From the NCBI GenBank assembly GCA_951406725.2, contig OX597831.1, forward strand, positions 75,454,001 through 75,518,000: a stretch of 64,000 bases of DNA. The letters are read 5' to 3'. The number at the start of each line of letters is the position of its first letter. Positions within the stretch are counted from its first letter, which is position 1. This document shows, piece after piece, positions 6,290 to 34,747 of this stretch. A program made the position numbers and the translations under genes. Below the pieces are notes generated by a model, which saw only the letters and a list, made by a program, of their open reading frames with translations, was not told the origin of the DNA and did no database searches. The stretch is from Octopus vulgaris. Its lineage: Eukaryota.

Positions 6290-8318
6290 GGGGAACAGGT
6301 CTGGCTTGGCGTACTGCATGTATGGGAGCTCAAGAAATATTCCCTTAATATAGTTGCGCTCTCTGAAACTCGTGTCTCAGGTGAGGCTCGAGTAAATGAA
6401 CCGACTTGTGGTTATACTATCTTTTGGAGAGGCCTACCTAAGGGTCAGCGTAGAGAATCTGGTGTTGGGTTTGCTCTCAAGAATACATTAGTATCTTCCA
6501 TTGCAGAGCTTCCAAGTGGTGCATCTGAACAGATCACGTCATGCCGTATTAAACTGACAGTATTTATGCACCAACAGTGTCCCATTCTGAGGAAACTATG
6601 ACAGTTTTATGATGATCTAGCACAATTTTTGAGGAAAGTACCAATTTCTGACAAGCTGGTCATATTGGGAGATTTCAGTGCAACAGTTGGAAAGGACTAT
6701 GTTTCATGACCTGTTTTAGGTCGAATTGGATAATGTAATAAAAATGGAATAGCACTTTTGATGTTTGGTACTGAGAATAATCTGGTTGTCACCAACACTC
6801 TATTTAAGCAGAAAAATAGATATGAAACCACCTGGATGCACCCAAGGTCTAAGCACTGGCATCTCATAGATTATATGCTGATCAGAAAACGTGATATGAA
6901 AGACGTTTCTAGCGTTTGGGCCATGAGAGGGACAGAGAGCTGGACTGACCATCATCTAGTTTATGGAAAAATAGATTTTTCAATCATGCCTAAAATTCAA
7001 CAGTCTGGTCCTAAGGTGCCTAAAAAGTTAAATGTTGCAAACTTTGAATTATCAAGCAACTTACAAAGATTCCACGAGGCTATAGAAAGTATCAATCTTA
7101 ACCCAAACAATTTATGGGAAGATTTCAAAACAAAAGTATTTCAGGCTGCAAGTTTGTCAGTGGGATTTAAATCAAATAAGTCCAGTGACTGGTTCTCAGA
7201 TCAGCAGAAATTCATGATCTACTTTTAGAAAAACAAAACTTAGGCAATACACTTCTTTCTCAGTCCTTGAACCCCAACTCAAATGAAGCTTACAAAAAGC
7301 TGAAAAGAAAAGTGCAGACTGCTCTAAGGAAAATTAAACAGGAATGGTGGAATGATAGAGCAAAAGGGGCACAAGAAGCAGATGATAGAAATGATGCCAA
7401 GGGTGTGTACTCTTATGTTTAGGAGGTATATGGTCCCCAAATGTTCAATAGCTCCAGTGAGAATAGCAAATGGTCATTTGTTCCCAACTGACACTGCTTC
7501 TATTCTTAAGTGCTGAGTAGAACATTTTTCTGCACTTCTAAATTGACCATTATCCGCTGACATGAGGAAGATAGAAAAAAATTGAACACCTTCTAGTTTT
7601 AGATGGCTTTTGAACCAACCCTAAATGACATTTATTTAGCTGTGAATAAGCTAAATAAGAATAAGTCTCCAGGGTCTGATGGAATCTGTGCAGAGGTCTT
7701 GAAATATGGGGGTGACAAAATGTTTGAACTCTTAAATATATTAATTTATCACTGTTGGGGAACTGAGAAAGTGCCTCAAGACTGGATTGATGCCATTTTA
7801 GCCTCCTTCTATAAATCGAGGCCAAAGGATCTGTGTAGTAATTTTCGTGGGATTTCGCTTTTGTCTGTGGTTGGAAAGGTACTTGCCCGCATTTTGTTAG
7901 AACATTTAAATACCTTCATAGTTCCAAATATAATGTCTGAGTCTCAGTTTGGTTTTCGTTCCTCCAGGGGCACAGCTGATTGCATCTTTACTATCAGACA
8001 ATTACAAGGAAAGCGCATTGAACAGAATCTTGCTGTATACCATTGCTTTGTTAATTTGATAAAAGCATTCAATACTGTTAATCAACATGTTCTGTTGCTA
8101 ATTCTAAGGAAAATTGGTTGCCCAGAAAAATTTGTAAAATGATCAGAGTTTTGCATCAAGATATGAAAACTAGAGTTAACTTTAGTGGTAGGGTCTCTGA
8201 AACTTTTGCTATGGAAAATGGAGTAAGGCAAGGCGACCTTGATGCACCCACCCTCTTTGCAATATACTTTGCTGATGTGTTGTCACATGCTTTTCAAAAC
8301 TCTGAGGTGGGTATTGAC
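6290..8318 (+). mobile_element. Degenerate RTE-clade LINE (APE endonuclease + partial RT) with stops and frameshifts
   Basis: ORFs 6242, 6758, 7603 and 8118 give IVALSETR, GVGF, TWMHPRSKHWHLIDY, WTDH, KSPGSDGI, NFRGISLLS, ESQFGFR and GVRQG motifs. Confidence 0.85.
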
Positions 8319-14643: not shown

Positions 14644-14949
14644 TGAAATGGATAAATGAATTATCTTGTTACGGATTATTCAAATTATAACCGATACCTG
14701 GGTAGCAAAAATCACAACAGAAAAATCACGGTTGAGGTTACGACCATATATATATATATATATATATATACTAGCATTATGACCTGTCGTTGCCGGGTCA
14801 TAGTGCTAGTGCATGTATATATGTGTATATATATGTGTACATATTACATGTACATCTATATATACATCTACACATAAAATACAAACTTATATCTTGATAT
14901 CGCTAGTGATAACAATACTCAAAATATATAACAGACTGGAATTGTAAGC

Positions 14950-15224
14950 CCGTCTCTTGCAATTTCGATCAATTGTATCTTGTCCTCCCTCTTGTATAGA
15001 AGTGTGGCTATAATCCAGCCTACCTCTACTGCTAGGGCGGGGGGCATTTTAAATTTTTATCCGGGACGTCCTACGTCCCAGATATAAAGGTAAAAATAAA
15101 ATATTTCCACTTTGCATGCTCCGTTGACTTGAACCTTGCTTCTATTGTGGCGAATTTACCGCCTCTGGTTAGATATCTTTCATAGTCGCACCAAGACACT
15201 TTTCGATGGTGCTTTCCTCCAGGT
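14950..15224 (-). pseudogene. 3' half of a decayed Tx1-type ORF1 (insertion target)
   Basis: Frameshifted peptides LEESTIEKCLGATMKD / YLTRGGKFATIEARFKSTEHAK / NILFLPLYLGRRTSRIKI align with ORF1 at 19139-20185 (IEEKKIENCLKPLMDKITYINRGKRYGTVEVRFTTEEIAK...NIVLLPLYRGKRTSKI). Confidence 0.8.
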
Positions 15225-15469
15225 TGTTTTATTATTACCCACAAGGGGCGAACATAGAAGGGACAATACAATCTGATGTGGGGTCAGACACACGAATGGA
15301 TTTTTACAATAAATCGAATTTAAAAATTTACATGAAATTACAAAATAGACACAAAATCGAATGATGGAACAGACCGGAAGACATTACGGGTGGAGTGGGT
15401 GCGGGTTTCGCTCGGACCCCACGAGCCCCGCCTCCCCACTGATACTTTTGGTTACGCTTGGTCTTACAT

Positions 15470-18400
15470 TTATGTTGTATCATTCACTCGCAACTTTCGT
15501 GCTACATCTTTCCATCGTTCTTCATACACTCTCCTAGTCAGGCATATTCTCTCCAGCCCTATCTTCCTTTTCAGGTGAAAGATGAAATAATTCATCAAAC
15601 CAGGGCCGGAGATGAACTTGCCTGACTGTAGACCTTTCATTCTCGTCTTCCATATCACCTCTTTCGCAATTGCTACTACAACGAGAAAACAAAACTTACC
15701 TTCTTTCGCGAGGAAATCCGGTGGGTCAATTTTTGTAATCGACTCAGTCGACAGCTGTACTCTTCGTGTACCTGACAACAGCTGTTCGGCATAAACCCAC
15801 ACCTCAGACACGTCCGGACAATGAACAATAGCGTGCGGGACGGTTTCCCTATCCCGCCCGCATCTTGGACATATCGGACTGTCTTGGCCACCGTGCCTTG
15901 CGAGTTTATCCCGAACAGGTAGAGCTCCTCTGTAGCATTGCCATGCCAGAGACTTCTGGAAGTTGTCCAGTGTCTTCGGCTCGAACGTACGTCGGAACAG
16001 ACTGGCCAGCTGATTATCGTCGAGACCTAGGGTTTCCCCCAAGGTATCTTCACATTCCGCCTCTACCAACCCTCTATAGAAGAATGTGGTGGAACCCTCA
16101 CCGCAGGCGTTGCCCGAGCGACGGAATAGCAGGAGAGCCTTGCGACACTCCGTGTACCAAGTGCCAAGTTTCGATCTACGATTCAGCCAGGTTTCCCATC
16201 CACCGAAACTAGTGAACTTGGGAAACATCAGTTTTGCTAGCAGAGACCACACCCGTTCATCATCCAGGTAGAGCCACAGATGTCTTAACCTCAGCGCATG
16301 TCTGCGCATCATCAGCCAAGGCATCCCTAGCCCACCCTTTAACGGTTGTTGACAGCAAGTAGAGCGTTTCACAAGTGGTTTCCCGCCCTTCCACAAGAAG
16401 TTGAAGAGCTGTCTTTCCAACTTGATCAACCACGAATCAGGGCAAGGAACGATGGAAAGGCGGTAGGTGATAACCGATGCGATAAACACATTGGCCACCT
16501 CCGCCCTCCCTTTCAGGGATAGCCACCGCCAAGACCAGATCTTGGTTACTGCAGCCACCCTGCTCGATACCTCGCCCCAATTCTTCTCTATTTGGAGGTC
16601 TGGACCGAACCAGACCCCTAGCAATTTAATCGGACCCTCCGTCCAACGTCCCACGACGCTGTCAGGAGGCATCGACTTGCCTCTCCAGGTGCCGAGTTGC
16701 AAGCCGACTGACTTTTCGCGATTAACTTTTGCTCCTGTCACCGTCTCGTAACCCTCTATGGCCTTGCCTACTTTATGTAGGTGGTCCATTTCGGTTACGA
16801 TGATGGTGATGTCATCCGCGTACGCTGACACCGATTTTCCACTACCTGGCTGTCTCGGGATGCCGCTCAGTTTTCGCAGTAATGGCTCAAGAGCCATCAC
16901 ATACAAAAGCGGGGAGAGTGGACACCCTTGATGAACCGAGCGCTTGATTTTGAACGGCTTCGACAAGAAGCCGTTCACCCGAACTACCGAGTCGATGTTA
17001 TCGTAAATTTGGATAATCCACCTGAGGAAGCCAAGGCTCAGCCCGAACTGTGCCAGAGCAGATACCAGGTAACGATGGTCGACCCTATCAAATGCTTTAG
17101 ATTGGTCTAATTGGACCAGTGCCCCACCCTTGCCAGAATCGCTATTAAACCCCTCTATAGTGTACCACATAAGATGGAGATTATCCTGAATGGTTCTGCC
17201 AGGAACGGCACATGTCTGTGCCTCCCCGATCAGACCATCCGCGACACGCGCCAATCTTTTCGATAACACTTTGGCCAAAATCTTCAACTCTGTGTTTAGC
17301 AGAGTGATGGGCCTGAAATTATCAATGCACTCCCCCTTGTTCGGGTCCTTTCTGACGAGTGTCACTACTCCCCGGCGCACAGATCTGGGTATAAGCCCGT
17401 TCTGCTGCCAGTTCGCATAGACCTCCGCCAGTAGGTGCCCGAACAAGTCTGGCATACTCTTATATAACTCATAGGGTAGACCATCTAAACCCGGCGCCTT
17501 GCCCGCGCCACAGTCCGCCATTGCCTCAACCACTTCCTCAGGCGTGATTGGCCCTTCACAGCCCTCCGCATCTCGCCCTGATAAGCGCGGCAGCCCGTCG
17601 AGTAGGTCCGTAAAGGCCCTCCTCCTATCCAGTCCGCCGCACTCACCGAAAAGCTGAGCGAAGTGCTCCTGAAAGGCCTCACACATCTCCTCGGGCTCGT
17701 TTATCAACTCACCTTGTTGGTTCGTCAAAGATCGAATCGTGGCATCGTTACCATGCTGTGCTTCCACCACTCGGGCCCATCTCACGGCGTTGATTCCTTC
17801 ACAACCCATATGGCGGATCCTAGCCCTGACAATGCAGCCCATGTGTTTGGCCTCAAGGTGCTGGTTTAACACCAGTCTCTTGGACGCCACCTGAGCCGCA
17901 GAGCCAGTTTTCAAGGCTTCCTCTAATTCCTTAACTAGAGTAGTTTCCCTTCTAGCCTCTCTAGCCACTACTCCTATGCTATATCTAATTGACTCGAACT
18001 TGATGGCTCGTTTGAGGGCATACCACCATTTGTTATTAATGATGGTACCAGATAGTGCCCTCTGAATTATATTCCTAATCCGGTCTTTGTACTCCTTAAT
18101 CGCCAAAAGGGACGTATTAAGTTTCCAGTAACCGGATCCTCTATTTTTAACCTTATCTATGTCAAGCTTACAGGTGACCATTTTATGATCACTGTAGCTG
18201 ATCGGGTAAAACTGTGGACACTTAGCTATTTTTCTGTCTACTTTTCTAATTAGTATTCTATCTAAATATGACCTGGAAGATCCGTCGCTGTTTGACCATG
18301 TCCACAATGGAGCGTTCGGAAATTCCAGCCTATAAGGATCTGCTAGCTCAAAGCGGCTTAGCAGTTCCATGAAGCCACTGTTACCTTTTCTATCTGAACG

Positions 18401-18853
18401 CGAGCCAACACAATCTACATCCGCTTTGCAAATTGTGTTAAAGTCTCCTAGCACAACTAATGAATGCGAAGTACCAAGAAAGTTTTCTAGTTCACGAAAA
18501 TAATCACTTTGCCCTGTACTGTTGGGTGCGTAAATTGCAACCAGTCTGATAACTTTACCGTTACTGAACGTCAAATCCATGACGACCAGCCTACCTTCTG
18601 GATCTGCAAAAATTAACTTTTTCTCAGAAACCCGGTTTCTTTTTATTAGGACCAACACCCCACTTCCGCCAGTAGAGAAAAAACTCTCGTAGCCGTCAAA
18701 CAGTGGGAGCAGACCTCTTGGCCCCTCTAACCGGGTTTCTGTAGCAACAAGAACATCTAAATTACGCGACCTGATATCATGCAGGAAGCGACCTTGCTTC
18801 CAGCCTGCTCCCAGGCCGCGCACATTCAAACAACCAACATAAATGTAATCCAT
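15470..18853 (-). CDS. Tx1-type ORF2 (APE endonuclease, reverse transcriptase, C-terminal CCHC zinc finger), 1127 aa, uninterrupted
   Basis: NVRGL, ETR, IYAPN, GDFN, YLDRI, SDH, GYWKLN, APGLDG, FRPITLLN, DQSKAFDRV, QGCPLSP, YADD and CPRCGRDRETVPHAIVHC motifs. Confidence 0.95.
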   Translation of the reverse strand: MDYIYVGCLNVRGLGAGWKQGRFLHDIRSRNLDVLVATETRLEGPRGLLPLFDGYESFFSTGGSGVLVLIKRNRVSEKKLIFADPEGRLVVMDLTFSNGKVIRLVAIYAPNSTGQSDYFRELENFLGTSHSLVVLGDFNTICKADVDCVGSRSDRKGNSGFMELLSRFELADPYRLEFPNAPLWTWSNSDGSSRSYLDRILIRKVDRKIAKCPQFYPISYSDHKMVTCKLDIDKVKNRGSGYWKLNTSLLAIKEYKDRIRNIIQRALSGTIINNKWWYALKRAIKFESIRYSIGVVAREARRETTLVKELEEALKTGSAAQVASKRLVLNQHLEAKHMGCIVRARIRHMGCEGINAVRWARVVEAQHGNDATIRSLTNQQGELINEPEEMCEAFQEHFAQLFGECGGLDRRRAFTDLLDGLPRLSGRDAEGCEGPITPEEVVEAMADCGAGKAPGLDGLPYELYKSMPDLFGHLLAEVYANWQQNGLIPRSVRRGVVTLVRKDPNKGECIDNFRPITLLNTELKILAKVLSKRLARVADGLIGEAQTCAVPGRTIQDNLHLMWYTIEGFNSDSGKGGALVQLDQSKAFDRVDHRYLVSALAQFGLSLGFLRWIIQIYDNIDSVVRVNGFLSKPFKIKRSVHQGCPLSPLLYVMALEPLLRKLSGIPRQPGSGKSVSAYADDITIIVTEMDHLHKVGKAIEGYETVTGAKVNREKSVGLQLGTWRGKSMPPDSVVGRWTEGPIKLLGVWFGPDLQIEKNWGEVSSRVAAVTKIWSWRWLSLKGRAEVANVFIASVITYRLSIVPCPDSWLIKLERQLFNFLWKGGKPLVKRSTCCQQPLKGGLGMPWLMMRRHALRLRHLWLYLDDERVWSLLAKLMFPKFTSFGGWETWLNRRSKLGTWYTECRKALLLFRRSGNACGEGSTTFFYRGLVEAECEDTLGETLGLDDNQLASLFRRTFEPKTLDNFQKSLAWQCYRGALPVRDKLARHGGQDSPICPRCGRDRETVPHAIVHCPDVSEVWVYAEQLLSGTRRVQLSTESITKIDPPDFLAKEGKFCFLVVVAIAKEVIWKTRMKGLQSGKFISGPGLMNYFIFHLKRKIGLERICLTRRVYEERWKDVARKLRVNDTT

Positions 18854-18862
18854 TACTTACCT

Positions 18863-20185
18863 TTATATCAGTGGTTCGTTTTTTTCTTTTTCTTCTTTGT
18901 TTATCTCTTTTTCCGGGCCTTGTGGGGGAGTCTGACGTAGGCCCTCGAATATATATGGAGATGTTAAATCCATTCTGAGCGGACCCACAACATGAAAGAA
19001 TTCGGACTTTATCCGCCCGTAATCCTTCCGGCCTATTCTGTAAACTATATAGTCATTCTTTTTCCCTATTTTTTCCACTTTGGCCATAGCTGCCAACACG
19101 TTCCCGAGTCTGTTGTTTGATGCCTTAACGGCCATATATCAGTTCATCGACTCTCTTTTCTTCTTTTGGATCACTCTTGGAGGGGTGGTTTCCGTTTTTC
19201 TTTTTTTTCTAGTGATTTTTGACCACCCCTCCTCATTGCTCTTTTTTTCCTCTGCCGCTGGTTCTGCTGCCTCTGTTACCTCCACACCTTCAGTCGTCCC
19301 TTCTGGGCTGCCCAGCGCTGCTTCTGGTGACACTTCATCTTCTTTTCCACCTGGCTGAGGTGCTTCCTGCGGTTTGGGTTGGGGTTGGCATTCCGCCTTT
19401 ACATGACCCTTCTTGCTGCAGCCGAAGCACCTCGGCTTTCTGCCCTCTACGAAAACTGTTATTCTCTCTTCTTCACTTATTTTAAGGGTTTCTGGAATCT
19501 CCTCCAGTGTTTGGATTTCTGCCTGAATGGCTATTACTATCCGCTGCCCTTTCCAGAATTCCTCCTCCTCTACTGTGGCCTGGAGGATGTTTATTTTTTC
19601 CTCCAGGCCTACCATGACTGCTGCCACCAGACATTCGGCATCTGTCTCTGGCGGAATGTTATTCATCGTGATTTTCGATGTTCTTTTTCCTCTATACAAG
19701 GGGAGGAGAACAATGTTCTCCGCTTTTATTGGCTCCATCGACAGTTTTTTTGCTATCTCCTCTGTTGTGAAACGCACCTCTACTGTGCCGTATCTCTTTC
19801 CTCTGTTGATGTATGTGATCTTGTCCATTAATGGTTTTAAACAATTCTCGATTTTTTTTTCCTCAATTTTTTGTATCATTTTGCTTGTCGTATTAAAGGT
19901 CTTATAGATTATTCTTCTTTTTTCGATTTCTTCATGTTTTTGGGCGTTTGAGACCACTGTCACTTCCGTGCCCTCTTTTGTAACACAGTCCGCATATTTT
20001 TTCAAGTCATCGACGTTTATTTTTTTGATTTTCTTACCAGCTACTTCTGAGAATTTTTTCGCTGGTGTTGGTGCTGGTGCAGGGGTTTCCTTTTTCTTTG
20101 GCGCCACCGCCTCTTTTTTCTTTGGCGACACCTCCGGAGATTCTTCTTCACTAGTCACGGGAGAATATGAGATGGGAGATTCCAT
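18863..20185 (-). CDS. Tx1-type ORF1 (gag-like, zinc knuckle CFGCSKKGHVKAEC) with one in-frame TGA at 19139-19141
   Basis: ATG at 20185 (MESPISYSP...). ORF 18863..19135 continues in the same frame one codon after the TGA. Confidence 0.8.
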
Positions 20186-20411
20186 CTCGAACAACTGGCT
20201 TAACAAGCCCTTGGTAAATTCAAGATAAATGGTATTTTTTCCCCCACGAAGGGGGGAACACCACCACAGAGTCCTCGCACGAAGGCTGACTTCAACAGTT
20301 GTACAACAATAAACAAAGACAGGTAGACACACAGTAGAATATAACGGAGAGAATAAATACGACGGCAAAATATAATAACTTACTATACACGCAATTAGCT
20401 TTCCTCCAGGT

Positions 20412-22129
20412 TGTTTTATTATTACCCACAAGGGGCGAACATAGATGGGACAATACAATCGGGAAAATGAATAATGAATTATGAAGTTTGTACAATGTGG
20501 TGTAATGCCCACTCGATCCCCGAAATCGAGCGGTTACATTTCGTCATTTGTTTTTTATTCGTCAACAATATTTTCCAAATAAAAACATTTTACACATTTT
20601 CAACATACATTTCAAAAATTTTACAAAGTTCAACATTTCTTTTTTTTTCAGAATTTAAAGTTCTTTTTATCATTTCCAAATTAAAGTTTTCACAATACCT
20701 TTTCTTTTATATATACTCCATTATGTCTACCAAATCTGAGTAAACTTCCATCGTTCGTGGCCACCTTGTAAGTCGGCATTTCATATGTTTTGACACGTTC
20801 TTGCCAGCTGCCTCGATGAACGCCTCAGCGTCGTTCTCGTGGACGAGTGCACCTGTTTCTTTCCATTCGGTGCCCATCCTGACCCACGTATATCCATTTG
20901 TTACGTTTATTAAATCTTCCATCTCCTCACAGTGCCTGTGATGGATCAACGTTCCATAGTATTTGAATTTTCTATTCGTACCTACGTTTTCTCTAGTTTT
21001 TCTCTTCGGACTTACTTCCTCTTTTTTCTCCTCCCTCGGTTTCTCTCTTTCTCTCTTTTTGCTTTCTCTTCTTTCTTTTCCCTTCTCTTGTCTTTTTGGC
21101 TCTTTGTCTGCCGTCTCTCTACCCTGTGCCTTATGTTCCTTTCCTGTTGTTTCTTTTCCTTTTTGCATACCATCTTTTCCTTTCTCTTGGTTCTGTTCCT
21201 TCTCTTGTTCTTTTCCTGCTTTTTCTCTTTCCTTTAATGTACTTTCCTTTTCTTTCTCTTGCTTCTGCCTTAGCTCCTTCTCCACTACTTCTGCACCTTG
21301 TGAATTTTGTTCCTTTTCTACTATCTTCTTCCATTTGTTTTCATTTTCCTTCAGTGCGCTGTTACTTCCCTTCTCTTGTTGTTTCTCCGTTATTTCCTTT
21401 TCCTTGTTTTCGCTGTTCTTTCCTTCGTGTTCGTTTTCCTTCTCTCCACTTTGTGTCTCTTTTTGCTCCGCTGTGAATTCATACAGCGGACATTCCTTTT
21501 TTATGTGCCCTCTTGATCCGCACAGGTAGCAATTCGGTTTTCTGCCCTCCACTATTACACTAATTGTTTTCTCGTTTTCTATTTCTATTTGGAAGGGAAA
21601 TCTTTCGATGTCTTCCATTGTGGCCATCAGCCACAACTCTACTCCAAATCCCTTCCAATTTACAACGTTCGTCTCCTTGATTGACCCTATTTCTACTTCC
21701 TCCTTTGCTGCCCCAATAATGGCTGTTACCAGCATTTCTGTTTTAATATCTGGGGGCACCTTTGGGACTCTTACCCGTACCCCTCGTCTTCCTTTATACG
21801 TCGGCCACATAGTGAAATTTTCGGCTTTCAGGACAGTGGAAGCCAATGAGGGCCACCACTTCCTTTGTTGCGCATCTCACCTCCACCGTACCATATTTCT
21901 TTCCTTCAATTGTTCTTTTCTAAAGAACACTTCTCTTATTCTAAGAGACTCGTCACTTTTTGTTGTGGCGACCCCCGCGTAAGTCTCCATGACTTGAGGG
22001 TCGACACACCTTCTATAAAAGGTTCAAACAATCAGCGGCAAACGCCTCGCGCGATTCAATTTTTTGACAATTTTTAACAGTTTGTTTTCAAATTTTCACA
22101 TACAAAATAACTCAATACACACGTGGATT
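20412..22129 (-). mobile_element. ORF1-only non-autonomous Tx1-family element (element A), ~1.7 kb
   Basis: It has an ORF1 homologue and its own 3'UTR, no ORF2, and the same terminal ~50 bp as element B. Confidence 0.8.
20707..21990 (-). pseudogene. Divergent ORF1 of element A (knuckle CYLCGSRGHIKKEC) with an N-terminal deletion and frameshifts
   Basis: ATG at 21990 (METYAGVA...), then frameshifted GKKYGTVEVRCATKE, then the open frame 21846-20707 containing VEGRKPNCYLCG. Confidence 0.75.
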
Positions 22130-22200
22130 GCGTTCCGCCAGGTGTTCAAATCTTCTTTTTTCTCTACATTGTATACTTTATAGACAATAGTCTTTTCTTT
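22130..22200 (-). pseudogene. 5' half of the decayed Tx1-type ORF1 target
   Basis: KEKTIVYKVYNVEKK/RRFEHLAER aligns with EKRRIIYKTFNTTSKMIQKIEEK of ORF1-B and joins collinearly to LEESTIEKCL at 15224. Confidence 0.7.
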
Positions 22201-24907: not shown

Positions 24908-25160
24908 GTAGTAAAGATTGTTTGCCAACATAACATTGCAGTCCTGGTTTAGGACGAATGGTGCTGTAATTTTGCCCCAGGAGACATCGTCTCCAGCTGG
25001 GTATACGACATGATCTGTGCCCTTATATTTTCAAACAAGGGAATCTAGCAAATATAAGCTGGCATATAGCCAGCTGGAGACGATGTCTCCTGGGACTAAA
25101 TTACAGCAACATTAGTCGTAAACCAGGACTGCCATGTTATGTTGGCAAACAATCTTTACT
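24908..25160. repeat. ~250-bp palindromic (MITE-like) element; related shorter copies at 62857-62974 and ~63255-63330
   Basis: GTAGTAAAGATTGTTTGCCAACATAAC... mirrors ...GTTATGTTGGCAAACAATCTTTACTAC. Confidence 0.7.
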
Positions 25161-25690: not shown

Positions 25691-25905
25691 TTCAAAATAA
25701 AATTCTTTCTTCAGATATTCTTAGACTCCCTCTAAGAATATCTGAAGAAGGAATATTATTCTGAAATATCATTGGACTATGGATGACTAAATTACAACAG
25801 GTATACACAGCCCATTGTCTGCATCATAGTGCATTGTTGTACCATTCAAAACAGTTTTTTCTTTTACAAACAATACACAATGCTTCAAGCGAACTACAAT
25901 ACTCT

Positions 25906-27094
<1,189 letters not shown>

Positions 27095-27124
27095 AAAAAA
27101 GGAGATGTCGAACACGAGTGGTGA

Positions 27125-32790: not shown

Positions 32791-33453
32791 AAAGTTGGTT
32801 TGTGAAAGCACGTGGGTGAATATATAGAAAATAGTAAAGAGTGAAAAAACTACAGAAGGCTTAAATGTTAAAAAATATATATATTTGCGTCAATATGTCT
32901 GAAGAATATTAGAAAATTTAAAAAAAAATTTCTTCTCTTATAATGACATAATTTAAAAGAAAGACCGGTTTCGCGTGTAGCTTTTCAAATTTCTTGCGAC
33001 GTTATGTTTATGTTGAATAGAGTTTTCGTTATGTTTATGATCAGGAGAGTTCTAAATAAGGGAAGGTAGTGAGTGATTTCTTCCGGTGTAAGGGAGATAA
33101 TCGCTTAAAAATGTTTTCCTTTCCCTTGGTGTGAATTTCTCTGTATCAGTATGTTCGGATGGTTGAGTCTGGGCTTGTACTTTTCAATGAAGAATGTTTC
33201 CTTGTTTAGTCTAATTTGTGTTGATGATCCGAAAGCACATTGGTAAAATGGAAAGATTAAAAATTGTGGTAGTAGTTGCTTTGCGCATTTCTCAATGTGC
33301 TCACTAAAAGGTATCATTCTATATTCTGGGAATGCAATCTGTTGTCGATGCAGTGTGCATCTACGTCTGAGTGATAGTCCCGTGGAACCCACGTAGTCTT
33401 GGTGGCAGCCCGAGCATTTTATGACATAAATTATGTTTTCAGAGGCACAAGTA
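32788..33453 (-). mobile_element. 5'-truncated Penelope-like element: GIY-YIG endonuclease and 3' pLTR with a hammerhead motif (32957-32995)
   Basis: ORF 33105..33557: CASENIIYVIKCSGCHQDYVGSTG.SLRRR..LHRQQI...FSEHIEKC...RLNKETFFIEKYKPRLN; inserted in (TA)n. Confidence 0.85.
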
Positions 33454-33454
33454 A

Positions 33455-33491
<37 letters not shown>

Positions 33492-34747
33492 TATACATAT
33501 ATATACAACGGGCTTTCTGGTTTTTATAGCAAAGTGTTTGCTGCTGTGTTCAAACAATGGCTATAAATCAAAGGGAGAGAGAATGATTTGATTGCTTTTA
33601 TTTTGTGAATCCGTTTCTGCTTCATGCATCATCATCATCATCGTTTTAACATCCACTTTTCCATGCTTGAATGAATCAGATTTTCATTGGTTAGATGTCC
33701 TTCTTGTCACTGACCCTCGTTTGTATATCTTTTAATTATTTAAGTACATTTAATAATTGTTTAAATTTAGAGATGACGACCCCTGGTCCAAGAAAAAAAA
33801 AAGAGAACCCTTGGAATCTAAATATTATATTTATAGGTGCAGGAGTGACTGTGTAATAAGTAGCTTGCTTACCAACCACATGGTTCCGGGTTCGTCCCCA
33901 CTACTATAGCTTTGGGCCAACCAAAGCTTTGTGAATGGATTTGGAAGACAGAAACTGAAAGAAGCCTGTCGTATATATATATATATATATATGTTTGTTT
34001 GTCCCCCCCACCTTTGCTTGACAACCAATGTTGGTGTGTTTACTTCCCTGCAAATTAGCGGTTTGGCAAAAGAGACACCGGTATAAGAATGCAAAAAAAG
34101 ACTGTAGTTTGAAATTTCTTAGAAAATACAAGAATACCATTGATTTTCGAGAACCTTTGGGTTCCAAAGACTTTTCAGAATGCTCTCTTTTATTTCTTTC
34201 AGTCATTTGACTGTGGCCCTGCTGGAGCACCACCTTTAGTCAAACAAATCAACCCCAGGATTTATTCTTTGTAAGCCCAGTACTTATTCTATCAGTCTCT
34301 TTTGCTGAACCTCTAAGTTATGGGAATGTAAACACACCAATGTCTGTTGTCAAGCGATGGTGTGAGGGACAGACACATACATACATGTATGTATGTATGT
34401 ATGCATGGCAACTTGGGCAAGTGTCTTCTACTATAGCCTTGGGCCGAGCAAACCCTTGTGGGTCAATTTGGTAGACAGAAACTAAAAAGAAGCCCATCAT
34501 TCATTCATACATGCATGCATGCATGTATGAATGAATGAATGAATGAATGAATGATGGGCTTCTTTTTAGTTTCCGTCTACCAAATTGACTCACAAGGGTT
34601 TGCTCGGCCCAAGGCTATAGTAGAAGACACTTGCCCAAGGTGCCATGCAGTGGGACTGAACCTGGAACCATGTGTACTATATGTGTATGTTTATTATATG
34701 TATTTGTGTATTTATATGTATACCTGTTCTGTTTCTCTTCTCTACAG

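Follow-up and report, generated by a model that had tools for sequence, protein, structure and literature searches.

Two LINE insertions at one 14-bp site in a decayed sister-LINE ORF1 of Octopus vulgaris and the possible role of an RNA-borne target copy

A stretch of 64,000 nucleotides from Octopus vulgaris (assembly GCA_951406725.2, contig OX597831.1, positions 75,454,001 to 75,518,000), called the window in the following, contains two long interspersed nuclear elements (LINEs), A and B, that are arranged in tandem. Our best explanation for this arrangement, which in our judgement stands an even chance of being correct, is a serial insertion of B and then of A with a priming as discussed for the element R1, followed by a later mutation of the upstream copy of the target. 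The poly(A)-less L1/Tx1-type LINE A and its partner B, which encodes only a first open reading frame (ORF1), would both have used one 14-bp site (T) in the old ORF1 of a sister LINE. This reading is favored by the colinear host ORF1 on either side, by the precise junctions free of A-tracts and by an AATAAA hexamer 9 nt from both element ends. All coordinates are positions within the window and all elements at this locus are on the minus strand, in which the order is flank, target copy T1, B (22129-20412), target copy T2, A (20397-15225), target copy T3 and flank.

The target copies and their host ORF1

The upstream target copy T1 (22130..22143) reads ACCTGGCGGAACGC, which corresponds to L-A-E-R in the frame of the host ORF1, whereas the middle copy T2 between B and A (20398..20411) and the downstream copy T3 (15211..15224) both read ACCTGGAGGAAAGC, T3 corresponding to L-E-E-S in the host frame. 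T1 differs from T2 and T3 at two of 14 positions, i.e., at positions 7 and 12 of T (22137 and 22132), and both differences are changes from A to C. T2 and T3 are part of two blocks (15211-15273 and 20398-20460) that are identical at 62 of 63 positions with a single mismatch at 15259/20446. The block match with the identity of T2 and T3 and the two deviating positions of the upstream copy had been pointed out in a preliminary description of this DNA, and both observations were reproduced. The 63-bp block is composed of the 14-mer T and of a 49-nt element tail common to A and B, and the homology ends sharply at both edges; beyond the tail no relation between the 3' untranslated regions (UTRs) of A and B was detectable (152 of 2000 shuffles score equally well). 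The repeat holds as a clean 14-mer, while the 17-nt form in which it had been given does not, the three further bases (ACA) matching T1 only via a one-base gap. The string of T1 alone is not significant, as three sites with up to two mismatches are seen in the window compared to approximately 0.58 expected by chance; for T, eight sites with up to three mismatches compare to 2.3 expected. T1 is taken to be the genuine upstream boundary because the ORF1-like frame of the flank crosses T1 and resumes in register after T3.

Both outer flanks are, as judged from their alignments, one decayed ORF1 of a sister octopus LINE that is split at T. In the upstream part (22144..22200) tblastn revealed 13 of 16 residues identical to residues 35-50 of the homologous protein P0123, with one frameshift preceding the codons that enter T1. 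The downstream part (14943..15210) consists of four colinear segments in changing frames with three frameshifts and one stop; it was mapped by tblastn using the proteins P0123, P0086, P0077, P0155, P0055, P0046 and P0154, and also ORF1 of A matches this flank at 15175-15040 (E 7e-6). For the ORF1 profile search the best 150 of 1259 homologs (E ≤0.001) were used against each flank separately. Upstream, the colinear relic covers 22200-22153, and downstream it continues in four segments between 15219 and 14943; over its roughly 340 bp there are one stop and four frameshifts in total. The frame entering T1 (R-F-E-H-L-A-E-R) is the frame that resumes in T3 (L-E-E-S-T-I-E-K-C-L-G), and since the flanks form one ORF1 relic in a continuous frame, T represents 14 nt of sister-LINE ORF1 coding sequence. 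Among the matches listed, the closest host-like protein is P0123 with 32 of 50 identical residues over the flank segments; at the target codons P0123 reads F-E-E-N-T-I-E and P0086 reads F-E-E-S-T-I-E. A search for further host-family proteins (A2 search) returned only four of its five own members.

The ancestral state of the target was assessed in the 62 domain rows, out of 182, which cover the site; some of these are near-duplicates and the positions are variable. At the first variable codon the glutamate encoded by T2 is present in ten of the 62 rows and the alanine encoded by T1 in none. At the second variable codon seven of the 62 rows contain the serine of T2 and two an asparagine, and the arginine of T1 is again absent (0/62). 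By this tally T1 is the derived copy at both variable positions and T2 and T3 hold the ancestral host state. The identity of T2 and T3, which had been read as a pointer to an RNA-borne target, loses this meaning because a second element that inserts into T2 duplicates T2 and yields identical copies anyway. As this identity is expected from serial insertion, only the comparison of T1 with T2, across B, is informative.

At this single locus two insertions occurred at one 14-bp site within the relic of a repeat family, and it seems slightly more probable than its opposite that this host ORF1 is a general target of the LINE family. Further copies of the tail or of the elements were searched for in the window by tblastn and self-BLAST, whose listed rows contained the 63-bp pair and, apart from this, no more than an unrelated reverse transcriptase (RT) of RTE-like type. 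For a second insertion locus, bacterial and archaeal genome contigs gave no match by 24-mer, and by ORF2 they gave 19 pattern matches of which none was confirmed. Two other origins of the target were rejected. An RNA gene (tRNA, snRNA, 5S) is not indicated, as the 25 Rfam matches in 14-24 kb are all below the gathering score and mostly fall on AT microsatellite; a self-targeting of the element's own ORF1 is not indicated either, as the homologous codons in ORF1 of A are not target-like. The Octopus ORF1 models P0003, P0005, P0159 and P0160 all begin at the first methionine just past the position homologous to the target, which could be due to an annotation habit or to interruptions at the target site.

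The autonomous element A and the ORF1-only element B

Element A (15225..20397, 5173 bp) is, according to the ORF list, Pfam and structure comparison, an intact two-ORF L1/Tx1-type LINE without a lesion across 1475 codons. Its uninterrupted ORF2 (15470..18853, 1127 amino acids) encodes an N-terminal apurinic/apyrimidinic endonuclease (APE), an RT and a C-terminal zinc-binding domain (Pfam: Exo_endo_phos, RVT_1 and zf-RVT), which is the arrangement of L1/Tx1-group ORF2 proteins, and the closest solved structure is human L1 ORF2p (E 1e-65; R2: 4e-25). Its ORF1 (19139..20185, 348 amino acids) has the RRM folds and the CCHC knuckle that define ORF1 of the same group, as supported by AlphaFold, Foldseek and Octopus homologs. 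The AlphaFold model (mean predicted local distance difference test score, pLDDT, of 91) contains two RRM-type domains and the knuckle, the top Foldseek matches of this model are tandem-RRM proteins, and all seven matches in the first homolog search were named Octopus proteins. The Pfam domain zf-CCHC was scored in ORF1 of B and not in that of A, in which the pattern C-x2-C-x4-H-x4-C aligns. In an RT tree of 61 rows (60 of 62 matches were kept), A is loosely placed in a 13-row group together with the fish ORF1-ORF2 protein P0171 with a support of 84/86, no labelled Tx1 reference being included in the tree. The PF23057 and PF23058 domains of this fish protein are presumably Tx1-type; the ORF1 profile matches P0171 at the knuckle only. 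From these sequence comparisons, A likely belongs to the Tx1 clade. None of the three ORFs from the window was found as an exact match in the protein collection. The 49-nt 3' tail of A (15225..15273) contains AATAAA at 15228-15233 and no poly(A).

Element B (20412..22129, 1718 bp) is a non-autonomous LINE with a zf-CCHC-containing ORF1, and within its interval no ORF2 was found in the ORF list or by tblastn. The presence of ORF1, the absence of ORF2 and a LINE 3' end common with an autonomous partner make it HAL1-like. Its ORF1 (20707..21990, ATG at 21990), which was delineated from the ORF list and by tblastn with P0008, P0005 and P0160, lacks approximately 65 codons near 21900 and contains one frameshift near 21850, after which 380 codons are open. 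The 49-nt 3' tail of B (20412..20460) is identical to that of A at 48 of 49 positions, with AATAAA at 20415-20420 and likewise no poly(A). Because the two ORF1s are only 29% identical despite this common tail, B cannot simply have arisen from A by an internal deletion. B-like ORF1s are multicopy in O. vulgaris at the protein level, the ORF1 of B being 56% identical to O. vulgaris P0005, and in a run of seven consecutive accession numbers from this species, six (CAI9715245-49 and 51) encode near-identical B-like ORF1s on a contig of one length. This accession numbering suggests that B-like units form a tandem array and that tandem insertion is a habit of the family.

The gap of approximately 65 codons in ORF1 of B (21895-21904) includes the stretch that corresponds to the insertion site of the host ORF1. 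The deletion join lies apparently within a short purine microhomology and could reflect chance or an escape from self-insertion. Furthermore, A and B share a motif matching at 15 of 18 nt, 6 nt inside their 5' ends (20374-20391 and 22106-22123, minus strand). This motif is weak, as 440 of 5000 shuffles score equally well, and represents a possible internal promoter element. Just upstream of the common tail, the 3' UTR of B contains a hairpin with an 11-bp stem at approximately 20500-20540 on the minus strand (z score -1.65 for a 120-nt window, 9 of 200 shuffles), for which no counterpart was seen in A.

Target sequence on the transcript and the template of the downstream copy

In both elements 3 nt separate the end of the AATAAA hexamer from T, and 17 nt separate it from the end of T. 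RNA cleavage takes place 10-30 nt downstream of an AATAAA hexamer, and at this distance T would therefore stay on the transcript. No poly(A) tract is present at either 3' junction, and both junctions are precise and identical, as in R1-type priming. The position of the hexamer, the poly(A)-less junctions and the precedent of R1 indicate that T is probably part of the transcript and used for annealing. Of the earlier proposal that the 14-mer travels in the transcript, acts as annealing sequence and overwrites the locus, the first two parts are retained on these grounds and the third is weighed below. A structured 3' tail or a tail-target hairpin was considered and rejected, the folding of three tail windows being no better than that of shuffles (z -0.29 to 0.46).

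The insertion of both elements might be envisaged as follows. The transcripts would read through the tail and be cut after AATAAA, thereby ending with the donor's T. The endonuclease would nick the bottom strand where T begins, the T of the RNA would anneal to the freed locus strand and reverse transcription would begin exactly at the tail end, in analogy to R1. A top-strand cut 14 nt further on would then create an ordinary target-site duplication (TSD) templated by locus DNA. B would have inserted first, resulting in T-B-T, and the upstream copy would subsequently have gained two A-to-C changes, either later or during 5' joining. A would then have entered the middle copy, which was still intact, and duplicated it in turn, hence the identity of T2 and T3. 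The RNA would carry the target for priming without overwriting the locus. A is plausibly the later arrival because it is lesion-free and B has two lesions, and the derived state of T1 at both sites is what a decay of T1 predicts.

Several points weigh against this serial insertion with a later decay of T1. The relic contains five lesions in about 340 bp (380 bp were used in the test) compared to two in about 1300 bp of B, a contrast with p = 0.008, or 0.026 if the stop is left out. B itself looks young, with no stop in 380 codons and a tail preserved at 48 of 49 positions. For an estimated divergence of B of 0.6-2.3% (one to two indels counted), the probability that two T1/T2 differences arose after the insertion of B is 0.02-0.15. 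The likelihood ratio in favor of a T1 that had decayed before the insertion and a T2 derived from elsewhere is 7-38 when indel/substitution ratios between 0.05 and 0.1 are used and spans 7-270 across the full set of 54 settings, the indel/substitution ratios and the relic ages being assumed values. This calculation leaves out clustered mutation, errors of 5' joining and a preference of the endonuclease for intact sites, all of which favor decay, and a T2 from elsewhere also spans a T1 carried with the 5' end (as in R2) and a recombination or mis-assembly between loci. Moreover, both changes are in T1 and none is in T2, and the steps concerning the transcript, the priming and the insertion order are those we infer.

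The preliminary description had suggested that the RNA-borne target replaces the sequence of the locus, and we regard this as rather unlikely at the present locus, a low prior having been given to an unusual cut by our own judgement. The site would already have decayed to the state of T1, the cut in the bottom strand would fall on the downstream end of T or close to it, and the RT would copy the family's T from the RNA; in a variant, the primer would instead be trimmed back past position 12. The TSD would then be a pseudo-duplication with the T of the locus upstream and the T of the RNA downstream, which regenerates a consensus target for the next insertion. The finding of the ancestral state in T2/T3 and of the derived state in T1 agrees with this course of events, as do the roughly ninefold higher lesion density of the relic compared to B with the central likelihood ratios, and the AATAAA position placing T in the RNA. 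In R1 copies at non-28S sites, up to 14 nt of the downstream 28S sequence are occasionally incorporated according to the accessible text of PMC2718515. However, R1-type annealing does not overwrite the locus, because in standard target-primed reverse transcription the nicked strand of the locus itself serves as primer and as template for the downstream copy. For the locus copy to be truly replaced, the bottom strand must be cut close to where T ends downstream, which is non-canonical, and the endonuclease would have to accept a target with a mismatch 3 nt away from its nick. All copies agree over the first 6 nt of T, so that an R1-type primer would pair at its 3' end without any trimming, and for L1 the available text of PMC3649969 describes extension of mostly unprocessed primers with four terminal matches. 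Furthermore, copying of the RNA's T to its end after a standard nick predicts an additional T1-like copy beyond T3, and none is there. Overwriting gains some support from the derived state of T1 and from a B that is much less decayed than the relic; the case for it consists of two bases at one locus, and it is live but unproven. The more general proposal that the LINE family targets the sister-LINE ORF1 and that every insertion brings in the family's own RNA-borne version of the 14-nt target, the apparent TSD being an RNA-templated pseudo-duplication and the T of the RNA an inbuilt short guide by which the junction is edited as well, is in our view unlikely.

In the reverse constellation, T1 or its last 8 nt arrived with the 5' end of B from a donor with a decayed T, via a co-transcribed upstream flank that anneals at second-strand synthesis, and T2 and T3 are the sequence of the locus. 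Both mismatches indeed fall into the half of T1 that adjoins the 5' junction of B, and RNAs of R2 and of melanogaster-type R1 carry upstream target and propagate its variants, including duplications with one to three substitutions, as stated in the accessible parts of PMC3774820 and PMC2718515. We consider this route improbable, as no such variant is present at the 5' junction of A, as the similar 5' motif of A and B at the same offset, weak as it is, suggests defined transcript starts, and as in 14-24 kb neither a ribozyme nor any other Rfam family scored above threshold. A small probability is also assigned to outer flanks that stem from different host copies by ectopic recombination, gene conversion or a mis-join of the assembly across the repeat. 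The asymmetry would be explained without new chemistry, and the apparent clustering of B-like ORF1s in O. vulgaris favors unequal exchange; such events are rare per locus, a positive sign of a breakpoint is missing and the flanks are colinear to the codon. Finally, it is very improbable that B is a one-off template switch from the tail of A to another ORF1 RNA, or the 63-bp block a long duplication made by A with the site chosen via tail homology and not via the target in the host ORF1, since this leaves T1 versus T2 unexplained, B-like ORF1s are multicopy in O. vulgaris and ORF1-only partners are a known class (PMC5786205, accessible text), even though the near-identical tails on weakly similar ORF1s with otherwise unrelated 3' UTRs would fit.

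Even under the conservative reading, i.e., serial insertion with decay of T1, a LINE and its ORF1-only partner appear to have a safe haven in the ORF1 of a sister LINE. Since the family that provides the target is a decaying repeat, its loci differ in the variants they carry, and the question which strand or template yields each TSD copy, and whether read-through RNA enters the 3' junction, is therefore answerable from genome sequence. Elements that target ribosomal DNA (rDNA) offer no such test, since homogenisation keeps their targets uniform. If overwriting is real, a consensus landing pad would be written behind the element even in decayed hosts, so that A and B stack in tandem; if it were general, it would represent a new cut geometry for an APE-type LINE, with relevance for RNA-only gene-insertion tools. 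If it is not general, the asymmetry is ordinary decay.

Neighboring features and comparison with known systems

Outside this locus the window contains exon-like pieces of a malonyl-CoA decarboxylase at 51854-52042 and 59954-60436 on the plus strand (Pfam MCD, E 2e-9 and 2e-5). A broken LINE at 55534-58371 (minus strand), in which fragments of an RT and an endonuclease as well as a PHD-like motif are present, is one that we take to be RTE-like, and an RT remnant is located at 7618-8139 (plus strand). A GIY-YIG-like ORF at 33105-33560 (minus strand; E 0.007, below the curated cut-off) is probably a Penelope-like remnant. Very long microsatellites are located at 49100-51850 (about 2.7 kb of ATT/ATC) and 25800-27100 (about 1.3 kb of AT), and microsatellites dominated the whole-window repeat scan. 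A long inverted repeat at 24930-25160 with arms near 25080-25160 and 24915-24995 resembles a miniature inverted-repeat transposable element.

The locus can be compared with the Tx1 clade, i.e., L1-related animal LINEs that use other transposons, even old and disrupted ones, as sequence-specific safe havens, and for which a serial tandem insertion of a non-autonomous partner around the TSD is described (PMC4494074, accessible text). As targets, the same text names DNA transposons, long terminal repeat (LTR) elements, snRNA genes and microsatellites, with Tx1L inserting into Tx1D, Tx1-Mar into Mariner-N4_AMi, Tx1-8_Crp and Tx1-4_AMi into LTR elements and Tx1-9_AMi into Harbinger. In contrast, the host in the present case is the ORF1 of a sister non-LTR element that is homologous to the ORF1 of the invader itself, and partner B codes for an ORF1 whereas the Tx1 partner is a short interspersed nuclear element. 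A LINE that targets the ORF1 of a sister LINE was not found in the literature searched, and the family may be described in subscription papers, Repbase or supplements. For O. vulgaris, 13 recently active L1-Tx1 families were counted (PMC13282606); an analysis of the junctions of octopus L1-Tx1 elements was not found, the available text and supplement of that study giving counts only.

In its composition of 5' UTR, ORF1 and LINE 3' end without ORF2, B resembles HAL1 (half-L1), HeT-A and Ag-Sponge as outlined in the accessible texts of PMC5786205 and PMC5322556. It differs from these in having no poly(A) tail, in its position at a specific site and in an ORF1 that is weakly identical to that of the autonomous, tail-sharing A. 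For R2 it is established that the RNA includes target sequence and that this is passed on together with substitutions (PMC3774820, accessible part). There, unlike here, this concerns the 5' end and an upstream ribozyme cleavage, in an element with a single ORF and a restriction-like endonuclease; Rfam revealed no ribozyme at the octopus locus.

A parallel in junction structure is offered by R1, in the proposed mechanism of which target sequence 3' of the element pairs with the cut bottom strand and yields invariant 3' junctions, and tandem copies of which are separated by one 14-bp TSD (PMC2718515, accessible text); for R1Bm, the annealing of read-through 3' target is cited in PMC7265360. The APE-type two-ORF structure, the 14-bp TSD, the poly(A)-less junction and the tandem spaced by one TSD are shared by R1 (PMC2718515) and the octopus pair. 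They differ in that R1-clade elements use 28S rDNA or telomeric/microsatellite targets and the target here is a LINE ORF1 (in 14-24 kb no Rfam match attained the gathering score), and in that ORF2 of A is closest to L1 ORF2p among solved structures. In R1 the annealing normally does not replace the target, the uptake of downstream 28S sequence being occasional and at non-28S sites (PMC2718515, accessible text).

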